A stretch of DNA of 64,000 bases from assembly GCA_965221165.1 (NCBI GenBank), contig CBDCRP010000003.1:384001-448000 (forward strand). The letters run 5' to 3'. Below, piece after piece: positions 15,464 to 53,451 of the stretch. Position 1 is the first letter of the stretch; every line of letters starts with the position of its first letter. Made by a program: the position numbers and the translations under genes. The notes under the pieces are model-generated. The model had not been told where the DNA came from. It searched no databases and was given only the letters and a program-made list of their open reading frames with translations. The DNA is from a bacterium (lineage in GTDB: Bacteria; UBA8248).

Positions 15464-16282
15464 ATGGGCAGGCGACGCGACACGCCGGATTTCACGCGCT
15501 CCAACAAATTCCCGGCACTCGAATACCAACCCGCAGCGGAAGAGCGCGAATTCACCAGAAAACTCATCGCATCCACGAGCGCGAACGAGCGCGAAGCGCT
15601 GGGCCAGAAACTGCTCGACAACATTTGCGGCAGCCTCAAAATCCCCCGCGCGCGCCTGCGCGTGTACGAAGAGCGGCAACCCCACAAGCTGCGCGGCGGA
15701 AAACTCGCCTATAAGCTGTACGGCGTCTATTATTGCGAAAACGCGATGATCGAAATCGCCAACCTGACGTCTATTCGCAAACAGGTCGTCGCAGGCAAGA
15801 CGTTTATGGATACCCTCATTCACGAACTCATGCACCACATCGACAGAAAATTTCTCCGAATACCCTCCACCCCACATAGCCCCGGCTTTTACGCGCGCAT
15901 CGAGGACATCAAAACCAAACTCATGCACATGAAGGGCGGGGAGTTGCCATCCCCGCAAGAAGCCGCCTGGGAGAGACCCAAAAACCTGACGGCGGCTCTC
16001 GAGACGGCGGTCTCAGGCGCACGAGCGAGAAACGAACGTCAAAACCCCCAAAAGCCGCACGAGGAGACTCCCGGCGACATTCCGCCGAAGAAGAGAAAGC
16101 CTAGGTGGACCCCGCCGGGTGAATCCGTATCCCCCGCACATGCACTGCCCGAAGAAGCCGGCGCAACAAACCCACCGAAAAAACCGCCACGCACCCGGGG
16201 AGGAGAGTCCACTTTTCCGAATCATCCCCAAAAAGACGTTTCGGTGGAGAAGGAGCCGCAACTGTCGTTCGACTTCCAGTAG
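15464..16282 (+). CDS. SprT/WLM-like zinc metalloprotease with disordered tail and C-terminal QLSFDF motif
   Basis: TLIHELMHH...HSPGFY zincin motif, a Pro/Lys/Glu-rich tail, and the terminus EPQLSFDFQ. Confidence 0.7.
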   Translation: MGRRRDTPDFTRSNKFPALEYQPAAEEREFTRKLIASTSANEREALGQKLLDNICGSLKIPRARLRVYEERQPHKLRGGKLAYKLYGVYYCENAMIEIANLTSIRKQVVAGKTFMDTLIHELMHHIDRKFLRIPSTPHSPGFYARIEDIKTKLMHMKGGELPSPQEAAWERPKNLTAALETAVSGARARNERQNPQKPHEETPGDIPPKKRKPRWTPPGESVSPAHALPEEAGATNPPKKPPRTRGGESTFPNHPQKDVSVEKEPQLSFDFQ

Positions 16283-16473
16283 GTATAATTTACTTTAGGC
16301 AAAAATAATAAATAACTGAAATATAAATTGAAATAAATTCCAAAAATGCGCCTGTCAAAACGCTCTTTCGCTACCCGGCCCAGGCGGTTGTGTTTCACTC
16401 TGCGATTGGGTAAACAAGGTCAGTGCATACGCCATCATACAATCAAGCGCATATCGCAGAGGAGTATTTTCAT

Positions 16474-17166
16474 ATGAGGCCGGCTAACGATTCAGTCCCG
16501 AAACCCTGGGGACCGCTGGCGGGTTTTTGGTCCTGGCAGTACCTGAATCTGTGGAAGACCATCAAACTCGTCACGAGCAAACGGGTCAAAAGTTTTTACG
16601 ATAAATTTCCGAACGTTCATCCCCCCGGCACCGCCTTCCCCGACTTCGAACTCAAGGATATTCACGGGAACGTCTACCGCATGGCGGATTATCTGGGCAA
16701 GAAATACGTGGTGATGACCACGGGCGCCATCACGTGACCGCCATACAGGCGGCAGGTGCCGTTTTACGAAGAGTTGCAGGAGAAATATGCGGATCGCGAC
16801 GTGGTCGTCTTCAATCTCTACGTGAGAGAACCGCACGCGGGCGAGCGCGGATTCCCGGAGATCAGAAACCATGAATCCTACGAACACAAGCGGAGCTACG
16901 CCCAAATGCTGGCCGAGGTCAAGAACATGGAAACCAATATCCTGGTCGACGAGATGGACCAGAAGGTTCACGCCAAGCTCGGAGATCTGCCGAACACCAT
17001 CTGGCTCGTCGGCAAGGACGGGAAAGTGGCCTATAAGTGCACCTGGTCGAACGCGGAGCACGTGGATGAATACCTGGCCAAACTGGTGAACGAGGACCCC
17101 GCATTCGAGGGGATGCCCAAAATGGAGCAAACCATCTTCACTGCCGGCGCCGGCACCGCGATCTAG
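16474..17166 (+). CDS. iodothyronine deiodinase-like (peroxiredoxin fold) selenoprotein, UGA read as Sec at 16735-16737
   Basis: Two same-frame ORFs separated only by one TGA, giving GAIT-U-PPY. Also YVREPHAGE, HESYEHK, LVDEMD and GKVAYK. GAGGAG RBS before ATG 16474; SECIS-like hairpin after the UGA. Confidence 0.85.
16747..16764 (+). promoter_or_regulatory. putative bacterial SECIS element
   Basis: AGGCGGC-AGGT-GCCGTTT stem-loop whose apical loop starts 17 nt after the UGA and has G at its second position. Confidence 0.65.
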
Positions 17167-17181
17167 CGAGACCAGTCGCCC

Positions 17182-17213
17182 AGAAACGCCCCTGTTTTCG
17201 AGGGGCGTTTTTC
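17182..17213 (+). terminator. rho-independent terminator
   Basis: AAACGCCCCT-gttttcg-AGGGGCGTTTTT. Confidence 0.7.
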
Positions 17214-17243
17214 GTCTCCATCACAAAGGAGGAAAACCCGGTC

Positions 17244-17768
17244 ATGGACGCGCCGACAATCATAGGAGAGCGCCTGGAAGCCTACGGGATGAGGCTTAGA
17301 GAAGTCATGGAAGACGTCACCGATGCGGACTTGATGATTCAGCCGGGTTCGAACGACAACCCTATGGGCTGGCTCGTCTGGCACATGACGCGCTTTGAGG
17401 ACAGGACTTTCTCTTGCATCGCTAAAACCCCGGAACTTTGGATAGAAGAAAAATGGCACGATCGCTTCGGCATGGAGCCCGATCCCGAATGCGACGGCGT
17501 GGGCTTCACCCTAGATCAGGTCCTTGAGCTTAAAACCAACAAGGACGCCCTGATGGGCTATTTCGAAGCAGTGCGCGGGAATACGCTCCCCTGCCTCTCG
17601 GGATTAAGCGCGGCGGACCTGGACCGGGAAGAAATCGATTTTATCAGCGGCAAGCCCATCAAGATCGGCCTGCTGGTGGGAAGATATCTGGGCGATCACA
17701 TCTCCCACATCGGACAAATCTGCTATCTGAGGGGCCACATCGCAGGCTGGGGGCGATACCCCGTATAG
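17244..17768 (+). CDS. DinB family protein
   Basis: NPMGWLVWHM and HISHIGQICYLRG His-triad pattern; AGGAGG RBS. Confidence 0.88.
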   Translation: MDAPTIIGERLEAYGMRLREVMEDVTDADLMIQPGSNDNPMGWLVWHMTRFEDRTFSCIAKTPELWIEEKWHDRFGMEPDPECDGVGFTLDQVLELKTNKDALMGYFEAVRGNTLPCLSGLSAADLDREEIDFISGKPIKIGLLVGRYLGDHISHIGQICYLRGHIAGWGRYPV

Positions 17769-51848: not shown

Positions 51849-52060
51849 GTGTTGCCGGATTTCGGTTGACCGAATGCTTACTTCCCAGAAATCCCTTCAA
51901 CGAAGAGTTGAAGGATCCCCTTTTTCGATGCCGCGCAGGTTCCACTTGCCCTGCTCTTCAAAACGAATAGAATCTAACCTCGTTCGAGACGACCCATGAA
52001 CTTCGAGGATTTCTTTTTACCTCCAAATTCCGGGTGGGCAAAAAGTTGATGTGGGAAAGC

Positions 52061-52689
52061 ATGAAAACCAAAATTCCCGAGGCGACCGTCAGCCGATTGT
52101 CACCTACGCCCGAATCCTGGATCAGGCAACAAGCGATGGGGCTGAACTCATCGCGTCCGCCGACTTGGCGGAGCAGTGCGGATTCAAGCCCGCGCAAATC
52201 AGAAAAGATCTCGCCTATTTCGGTGAATTCGGTGTCCGCGGGAAGGGCTATTACATCAAGGAGTTGAGGTACAATCTCAAGAAAATCCTGGGCGTGACCC
52301 GAACATGGAAAGTCGTGCTCGTCGGAGCGGGAAATCTCGGTTCAGCTCTATTGGCGTATAAAGGTTTTCTGGCGCATGGCTTCGAGATCGACGCCGTCTT
52401 CGACAAATTTCCCGAAAAAATACCCGCTCACCGAACCGGCTCTCTTCCGGTGTTGCCGATGTCGAATTTGCATGAAGTGGTGCAAGAAAAACAGATCAAG
52501 ATCGGCATCATCGCAGTGCCGAGCAAAAACGCGCAAAACGTAGGGACATCGCTCGTCAATGCCGGAATTACGGGCATCCTGAATTTCGCTCCCACCCAAA
52601 TTCAAACGCCGCACCATGTAAAGGTGAAAAATGTGGATTTGGGCAGTGAACTGGAACACCTGTCATTCTATCTCTCTCAAAACACTTGA
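52061..52689 (+). pseudogene. rex: redox-sensing repressor Rex with a 1-nt frameshift near codon 14-15 (pseudogene or sequence error)
   Basis: The ATG 52061 frame gives MKTKIPEATVSRLS. The continuation YARILD...QIRKDLAYFGEFGVRGKGY...VGAGNLG...ILNFAP is in another frame. The span is 629 nt, one short of a multiple of 3. Confidence 0.85.
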
Positions 52690-52704
52690 GGCGTTCGCAA
52701 CCGG

Positions 52705-53451
52705 ATGGATGAACCACAAACCTCCTGGATCCTGGCCTTCGACACTTCGATACCCAAAGGAAGGTGCGCGGTGCTTTGTGCAACGGGAACCGCCGAGGAG
52801 GCGCTTCTCCCGGAAGAAACCCGAATTTCAAATACGCTCTTGCCCCAGGTGGAGCAACTCCTGAATTCAAGAAACATCCGCACAAACATGATTCAGGCCA
52901 TTGGCGTGAGCATCGGCCCAGGGACGTTTACCGGGCTACGGGTAGGACTCTCTTGCGCAAAAGGGCTCTCGCTGGGTTTGGGCTGTCCATTGTATGGCTT
53001 TTCATCTTTAGAAATCATGGCGATGGCTGCGCTGCTGCATGAAAAGCAGACGAGCAGAAGTCTACCCAATTACATTCTCCCCTACCGGGATGCCAGGCAT
53101 GGAGAGTTGTTCACCGCTTTGTTCCAAGTATCCAGGAACCCGGGATCCCCTCGGGAAAATGCCCTTTTGCGCGTCCGGGGAGATGAAACCATCACACAAG
53201 ACGAGTTCCGCCCCCCGGAGAATGGCCATACGCTGATCGCGGGAAAAAAAGCGGAATTACCTCAAACCCTTGCCCCTGGAGTTTCAGGAGGAACAATCGG
53301 GCATAGTGAAATCGATTCCTCGGCCATTGCGACCGCATGGCTGACCCACAGAGCCCTCCAAAACCAAACACCCATGCATAGCGCCAACATATCGCTGAAC
53401 TACTGCCGAAAATCTCAAGCGCAAACCAAATGGCCGGACCCTCGGGGTTGA
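52705..53451 (+). CDS. tsaB: tRNA t6A biosynthesis protein TsaB
   Basis: ILAFDTS, GPGTFTGLRVG, AKGL and DARHGE. Confidence 0.9.
   Translation: MDEPQTSWILAFDTSIPKGRCAVLCATGTAEEALLPEETRISNTLLPQVEQLLNSRNIRTNMIQAIGVSIGPGTFTGLRVGLSCAKGLSLGLGCPLYGFSSLEIMAMAALLHEKQTSRSLPNYILPYRDARHGELFTALFQVSRNPGSPRENALLRVRGDETITQDEFRPPENGHTLIAGKKAELPQTLAPGVSGGTIGHSEIDSSAIATAWLTHRALQNQTPMHSANISLNYCRKSQAQTKWPDPRG

Follow-up and report, generated by a model that had tools for sequence, protein, structure and literature searches.

In a 64,000-nucleotide stretch of bacterial DNA (the window), two open reading frames that standard annotation treats as separate genes are a single gene, which is real and conserved. The comparisons below strongly support the view that UGA codon 88, which divides the two frames, encodes selenocysteine (Sec), and that the whole is one selenoprotein gene. 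Its predicted product is a Sec enzyme of the iodothyronine deiodinase family (PF00837) with a thioredoxin fold, and this placement is well supported. We propose that the enzyme would work with a lone selenolate, a proton relay and an external thiol. We consider this explanation, taken as a whole, to be very probable.

Deiodinase-like selenoproteins of bacteria were reported in 2005, along with their cysteine forms and a bacterial SECIS element, in a survey of the Sargasso Sea (PMC1088965). And FO_M_Nitrospinota_01 (GTDB UBA8248), which carries a 71% identical ortholog (L090) of the gene, is given as one of the ten most selenoprotein-rich bacteria of BSepDB, with 54 genes (PMC13326102). Because of the 2005 description and because relatives are listed as selenoprotein-rich, the gene adds to a kind that was already known. 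The first-pass annotation had called it a hidden deiodinase-like selenoprotein. The deiodinase-family selenoprotein, its SECIS-like hairpin, and its absence from standard annotation all stand; "hidden" is right for the gene calls but not for the kind of protein, which PMC1088965 describes.

Judging from the aligned sequences, what is noteworthy is that the proteins are found across the phylum, in multiple copies, as Sec forms only, and with neither a cysteine at position +3 from Sec nor a resolving cysteine. The result corrects a systematic annotation error, as every public relative that we found is present as one or two "hypothetical" fragments. A second gain is a well-supported set of deiodinase-family selenoproteins, spread across the phylum and with a covarying SECIS. 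Like the animal enzymes, these proteins have no +3 cysteine, and they have no resolving cysteine either, which would make them a clean system for studying the role of deiodinase relatives outside animals. The conceptual advance would be small unless an activity were demonstrated.

A gene split at an in-frame UGA

One reading frame runs from ATG to TAG, and a TGA is its only internal stop (Table 1). The open reading frames listed under translation table 11 are two pieces of this frame, at 16423..16737 and 16756..17166, just as the first-pass annotation had it: two ORFs that share a frame and are separated by the TGA. If the TGA is read as Sec (U), the product has 230 amino acids with U88 in the motif T-U-P-P-Y, and it contains all four of the motifs that had been picked out by eye (VVMTTGAIT-U-PPY, YVREPHAGE, HESYEHK, and ILVDEMD). 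The gene had also been credited with its own ribosome binding site and terminator, and sequences that resemble both are present. An AGGAG precedes the ATG, and a strong stem-loop with U-rich sequence after it follows the stop codon; the whole 61-nt fold has −24.2 kcal/mol (z = −3.78, with 0 of 200 shuffles as good). This stem-loop was not among the matches from a simple scan for the terminator consensus, and a promoter scan of 16200–17300 found no promoter. The same ATG start is present in 30/30 orthologues.

Table 1. Positions in the window of the selenoprotein gene, its signals, and the adjacent gene.
Feature	Position	Strand	Evidence
Shine-Dalgarno-like AGGAG, 9 nt 5' of the ATG	16460..16464	+	read from sequence
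CDS of the 230-aa deiodinase-family selenoprotein, from ATG 16474 to stop TAG 17164-17166	16474..17166	+	read-through translation, Pfam
UGA codon 88, read as Sec; active site T87-U88-P89-P90-Y91	16735..16737	+	conservation
SECIS-like hairpin, 7-bp stem, apical loop AGGU 16754-16757	16747..16764	+	folding, covariation
Terminator-like stem-loop, then U-rich stretch	17182..17212	+	RNA folding
Neighbouring DinB_2 / mycothiol-transferase-like gene	17244..17768	+	Pfam DinB_2 6.6e-10

Public protein sets hold the two halves as separate entries, both filed as "hypothetical proteins", so the expectation that standard annotation would miss the gene was correct. A word-indexed protein search gave 81 relatives, all of 127–137 amino acids, which is the C-terminal piece; those with names were each called "hypothetical protein". 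An exhaustive HMMER search also gave N-terminal pieces, which end at residue 87.

At the aligned codon, 49/49 relatives have the TGA, far more than would be expected by chance. All 30 orthologues (68–93% identical) have it, and so do all 19 of the other copies, which are orthologues and paralogues at a greater distance. A search of 51 whole genomes from the same phylum gave a match in every one. The best matches, 107 in number with E up to 7e-39, each contain exactly one TGA, and one of them has a TAA as well. At least one such copy is found in 48 of the 51 genomes, and the source genome has three.

In distant homologues, as the first-pass annotation had anticipated, the residue at position 88 is usually cysteine. 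Among 49 full-length homologues that span the site, chosen from the best 150 of 2290 (HMMER, E up to 0.001), 44 have Cys, 3 have Ser, and 2 have Gly. U88 also aligns with the residue that was changed from Sec to Cys in the constructs used for the crystal structures of Dio3 and Dio2. Relative to the orthologue L019, the ratio of synonymous to non-synonymous changes is 14:5 upstream of the TGA and 26:10 downstream. Because synonymous changes are in excess on each side, both halves appear to be translated and constrained.

The genome has the machinery for Sec insertion that the first-pass annotation had said to look for. selA (507 bits) and the wing domain of selB (73.9 bits) lie on C3, the contig that contains the window. 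The tRNA for Sec (selC; 75.9 bits, with anticodon TCA according to ARAGORN) and selD (330 bits, with one in-frame TGA) lie on another contig. With this machinery present, and with Cys or TGA at position 88 in the homologues, both of the refuting conditions named in the first-pass annotation came out in favour of its reading.

Contigs from two metatranscriptome studies cross the TGA and leave it unchanged (X12 record 10, corresponding to 16635–17080, and X23 record 15, corresponding to 16640–16930). These contigs are from relatives, and DNA carry-over is possible, so they give at most a hint of transcription.

A SECIS-like hairpin with covarying pairs

The hairpin that had been proposed, GGCGGC-AGGU-GCCGUU, is present. 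Its stem pairs 16747–16753 with 16758–16764, for 7 base pairs including an A-U pair, at −8.7 kcal/mol. It begins 9 nt past the UGA, and the loop starts at the 17th nucleotide after the UGA, as had been claimed. We take the sequence GCAGGU to be common to this hairpin and to the fdhF SECIS of E. coli. There is strong support for the insertion of Sec at codon 88 by SelB and the tRNA for Sec, with this small hairpin recruiting them.

Across 48 distinct aligned sequences, both partners have changed in three of the hairpin's pairs (12 cells in all), and none of 500 shuffles reached the covariation score. In two of the double changes, neither codon changes its amino acid (Arg CGG becomes AGG while Pro CCG becomes CCU). 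Furthermore, no synonymous site in the CGG-CAG-xUG-CCG codons varies among the 30 orthologues, while nearby codons for Pro, Phe, and Tyr do. The loop of the 48 sequences is AGGU, AGUU, AAGU, or a 5-nt form. A small apical loop that contains G, just past the UGA, is how the criterion is worded in PMC1088965, and this hairpin has one.

We also noticed that the R-R-Q which follows U-P-P-x (window 16738–16749) is invariant in 49/49 Sec forms and variable in the Cys homologues. Because it is constant in the Sec forms only, it fits a constraint on the RNA rather than on the protein. The choice of these amino acids seems to follow from the SECIS.

The stem is short and two of its pairs are G-U, and RNAalifold retains only 3 of its pairs. 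The local region of 71 nt folds no better than shuffles do (z = −1.38). As a control, we slid the 3' partners by +1; this register scored 0.197 versus 0.177, which is to say that the covariation was equal. The slid register scores as well because one group of paralogues has a 5-nt loop, which shifts the pairing. An Rfam scan of 16600–16900 at E up to 10 gave only a chance match to an sRNA.

There is also a competing hairpin, at 16732–16759, which includes the UGA and pairs CCGCC with GGCGG. The two folds are mutually exclusive, as the SECIS stem uses this GGCGG for its 5' arm. In free RNA, the competing hairpin is slightly more stable. But if at least the first 9 nt are held single-stranded, as they would be by a ribosome, then the fold of lowest energy is the SECIS-like hairpin. 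The competitor, which is 92% paired, hardly varies; two of its pairs have unpaired cells, in 13 and 8 of the sequences. The orthologues retain this competing fold, and in the paralogues it is broken.

Family placement and active site

For the protein by itself, Pfam does not separate the candidate families: AhpC-TSA (46.9 bits) and Redoxin (41.3 bits) score above T4_deiodinase (39.3 bits, with a cut-off of 27), and all three are above their cut-offs. Across the family, T4_deiodinase matches 48 of 50 members and GSHPx matches 3 of 50. The best match in NCBIfam is NF038285, "deiodinase family protein" (3.6e-20, at profile positions 180–324 of 347). The protein is not a member of this equivalog, as its 72.7 bits fall far short of the cut-off of 250 and it matches only part of the profile.

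A profile built from the protein and its 49 Cys homologues settled the matter. When compared to solved structures, it matched Dio3 (2.3e-26) and then Dio2 (2.9e-19), with ResA next (1.4e-14). In the alignment, fgsiTCPPa pairs with FGSCTCPPF and YvrEaHPGe pairs with YIEEAHPSD, and a conserved histidine is found further on. In an AlphaFold model (pLDDT 83.3), the thioredoxin fold spans codon 88. With the model as the query, the TM-scores were highest for Dio2 (0.61) and Dio3 (0.57).

The proton relay of Dio2 is described as Ser127, Thr129, Tyr157, Glu160, His162, and His182 (PMC11592359). By aligning the motifs, we matched these to Ala85, Thr87, Tyr116, Glu119, His121, and His133, so that five of the six are kept and Ser127 is replaced by Ala85. 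T87, Y116, H121, and H133 are invariant in 49/49 sequences, and E119 is present in 48/49. None of the 49 aligned copies has a cysteine at +3 from Sec; 45 of them have U-P-P-[YF] or close variants of it. No resolving cysteine is conserved either: Cys189 is present in only 22/30 orthologues, and the orthologue L046 and both paralogues from the source genome have no cysteines at all. Inspecting the N terminus by eye, we saw no obvious signal peptide or membrane anchor.

There is strong support for a product that is a cytoplasmic enzyme of 230 amino acids with a thioredoxin fold and a catalytic Sec at position 88. We propose that its selenolate would attack a small substrate at an electrophilic atom, and would be oxidised to Se-OH or Se-X, while the relay of Thr87, Tyr116, Glu119, His121, and His133 would give the leaving group a proton. 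Because no resolving cysteine is conserved, the oxidised enzyme would have to be reduced by an external thiol, such as thioredoxin, glutaredoxin, or a low-molecular-weight thiol.

The protein resembles Dio3 (4tr3) and Dio2 (9h48) in T-U-P-P-F/Y, in Y-x-x-E-x-H, in a histidine about 11–17 residues later, and in the proton relay. Unlike those enzymes, it lacks a membrane anchor and has no conserved proximal or distal cysteine, and the identity is only about 20%. Its omega-loop is also shorter. With 11 residues between the two histidines, it falls short of the full-length omega-loop (loop-D) of deiodinases; Dio3 has 9 residues more. At the position of the gate Phe of Dio3 is the proline of L-P-N, which is kept in 48/49 sequences. 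This proline is presumably the cis-Pro of the thioredoxin fold. And the SECIS lies within the coding region, as in bacteria.

Among previously described proteins, the bacterial deiodinase-like selenoproteins (PF00837; PMC1088965, PMC9312934, PMC13188914) share the thioredoxin fold, Sec at the redox position, the existence of Cys homologues, and a SECIS just past the UGA whose small apical loop contains G. Their family motif is given as UxxC in the reviews (PMC9312934, PMC13188914). When compared by this published motif, the representative of the reviews differs from our proteins, which have no +3 cysteine.

The 1-Cys peroxiredoxins and the Sec glutathione peroxidases are similar in having a single redox chalcogen on a thioredoxin fold and in recycling by an external thiol, which for our protein is part of the proposal. 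AhpC-TSA is also the top Pfam score. Peroxiredoxins have the active-site motif P-x-x-x-T/S-x-x-C. This motif is absent from our protein, in which M81-T-T-G-A-I-T87 precedes U88, with Ala at −3 and Met at −7.

Two of the distant homologues are much longer. P0089 (1188 amino acids) and P0190 (3000 amino acids) contain from 4 to 16 repeated stretches per protein that are similar to deiodinases or redoxins.

Possible substrates, gene neighbours, and spread

A peroxide or a similar oxidant could plausibly be the substrate, and so could something else altogether; an aryl halide seems unlikely. Nothing in the gene context or the sequence separates dehalogenation from peroxide chemistry or other redox chemistry. 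We did consider the reading that the first-pass annotation preferred, in which the protein is a cofactor-free, Sec-based reductive dehalogenase that acts on iodinated or brominated aromatics in the manner of the animal deiodinases. Dio3 and Dio2 are the closest proteins of solved structure, and five of the six relay residues are kept. T-U-P-P-[YF] is like the T-C-P-P-F of the deiodinase constructs in having no cysteine at +3, where the reviews give the bacterial family as UxxC. However, no halogen-related gene is near any of the three copies in the source genome. Also, the shortened loop is the one that borders the thyronine site in deiodinases, and a proline aligns with the gate Phe of Dio3. 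The authors of the 2005 survey expected another, redox function for the proteins they described (PMC1088965). And our literature search for deiodinase-like or deiodinase-homolog proteins from bacteria found no member that had been assayed. So we view dehalogenation as a hypothesis that is rather improbable, and not as the likeliest reading. A more specific version seems more doubtful still: these would be cobalamin-independent reductive dehalogenases whose selenolate takes I+ or Br+ from the halogenated phenolics that are plentiful in marine habitats, and the phylum-wide, Sec-only, multi-copy set would represent the ancestral chemistry behind the thyroid-hormone deiodinases of animals.

We also considered a thiol-disulfide oxidoreductase of the ResA/TlpA type that acts on proteins, with Sec in place of the first cysteine. 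A search of the PDB with the single sequence is led by ResA-like proteins, with U88 on their first cysteine, and ResA has the best E-value from Foldseek. The proline at the cis-Pro position is kept as well. However, the CxxC pair is absent, as U-P-P-Y lacks the second cysteine. Furthermore, neither a signal peptide nor a membrane anchor is evident by eye at the N terminus, and the family profile favours deiodinases by 12 orders of magnitude. We think that this activity is quite improbable, and we prefer a deiodinase-family enzyme that uses a lone selenolate.

Two readings in which codon 88 is not Sec are far less probable. That the TGA is a true stop, with two genes or a pseudogene, is how gene callers read it and how the databases hold the halves, but this is already contradicted by the same codon in every copy across the phylum, by purifying selection on both halves, by a thioredoxin fold that spans the codon, and by homologues with Cys there. 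That the TGA encodes another residue (Trp or Gly, in an altered code) or is simply read through is just as hard to credit: nothing specific favours it, TGA is the ordinary end of the gene in four orthologues (L036, L041, L042, and L046), which implies that the code is not altered, and the tRNA for Sec, selA, selB, and selD are present while the homologous residue is Cys.

Near the gene are a GFO/IDH/MocA oxidoreductase, a protein of 272 amino acids, a DinB-like protein, an F420-type luciferase-like oxidoreductase, and a DEAD helicase. The conserved 272-aa protein (window 15464–16282, + strand) directly precedes the selenoprotein gene in 25 of 29 related loci; it has no match in Pfam or NCBIfam. 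The DinB-like gene, which scores 108 bits against MST_Rv0443 of NCBIfam (below the cut-off of 170), adjoins the selenoprotein gene in 19 of the 29 loci, and here the terminator-like stem-loop separates the two.

The other two copies in the source genome (G000) are paralogues, at C3:1430186-1430809 (+) and C2:321398-322012 (−) (loci L048 and L049). They are about 40–43% identical, and each has one TGA in G-A-I-T-U-P-P-[YF]-R-R-Q. One is flanked by an AAA ATPase, an HNH gene, a luciferase-like oxidoreductase, and a flavin reductase; the other is flanked by MFS transporters and a GNAT gene. Across the neighbourhoods of all three copies, we found no consistent functional partner.

The named relatives with orthologues include Nitrospinota, Nitrospinaceae, and Candidatus Tectomicrobia. 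Among sequencing runs, two from one sample hold nearly the whole stretch. Other runs, some of which are labelled as sponge metagenomes, hold at most 15% of its words, and these low-share runs carry no information about habitat.

A mechanical search for other recoded genes in the window gave 209 candidates; we scanned 12 of them against Pfam, and in these no domain spans a TGA. One same-frame pair, at 52051–53451 (+ strand), consists of a Rex-like gene (a CoA-binding domain with a DNA-binding N terminus) and a gene of the TsaB/TsaD family, with a TGA between them. Because the Pfam domains flank this TGA, these are two ordinary genes and are not recoded. Elsewhere in the genome, selD (C2:975065-976027, − strand; locus L012) is itself a selenoprotein gene, with its TGA in G-G-U-G-S-K. 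Reading by eye, we saw a hairpin there too, with a GGA loop that starts some 17 nt past the UGA.
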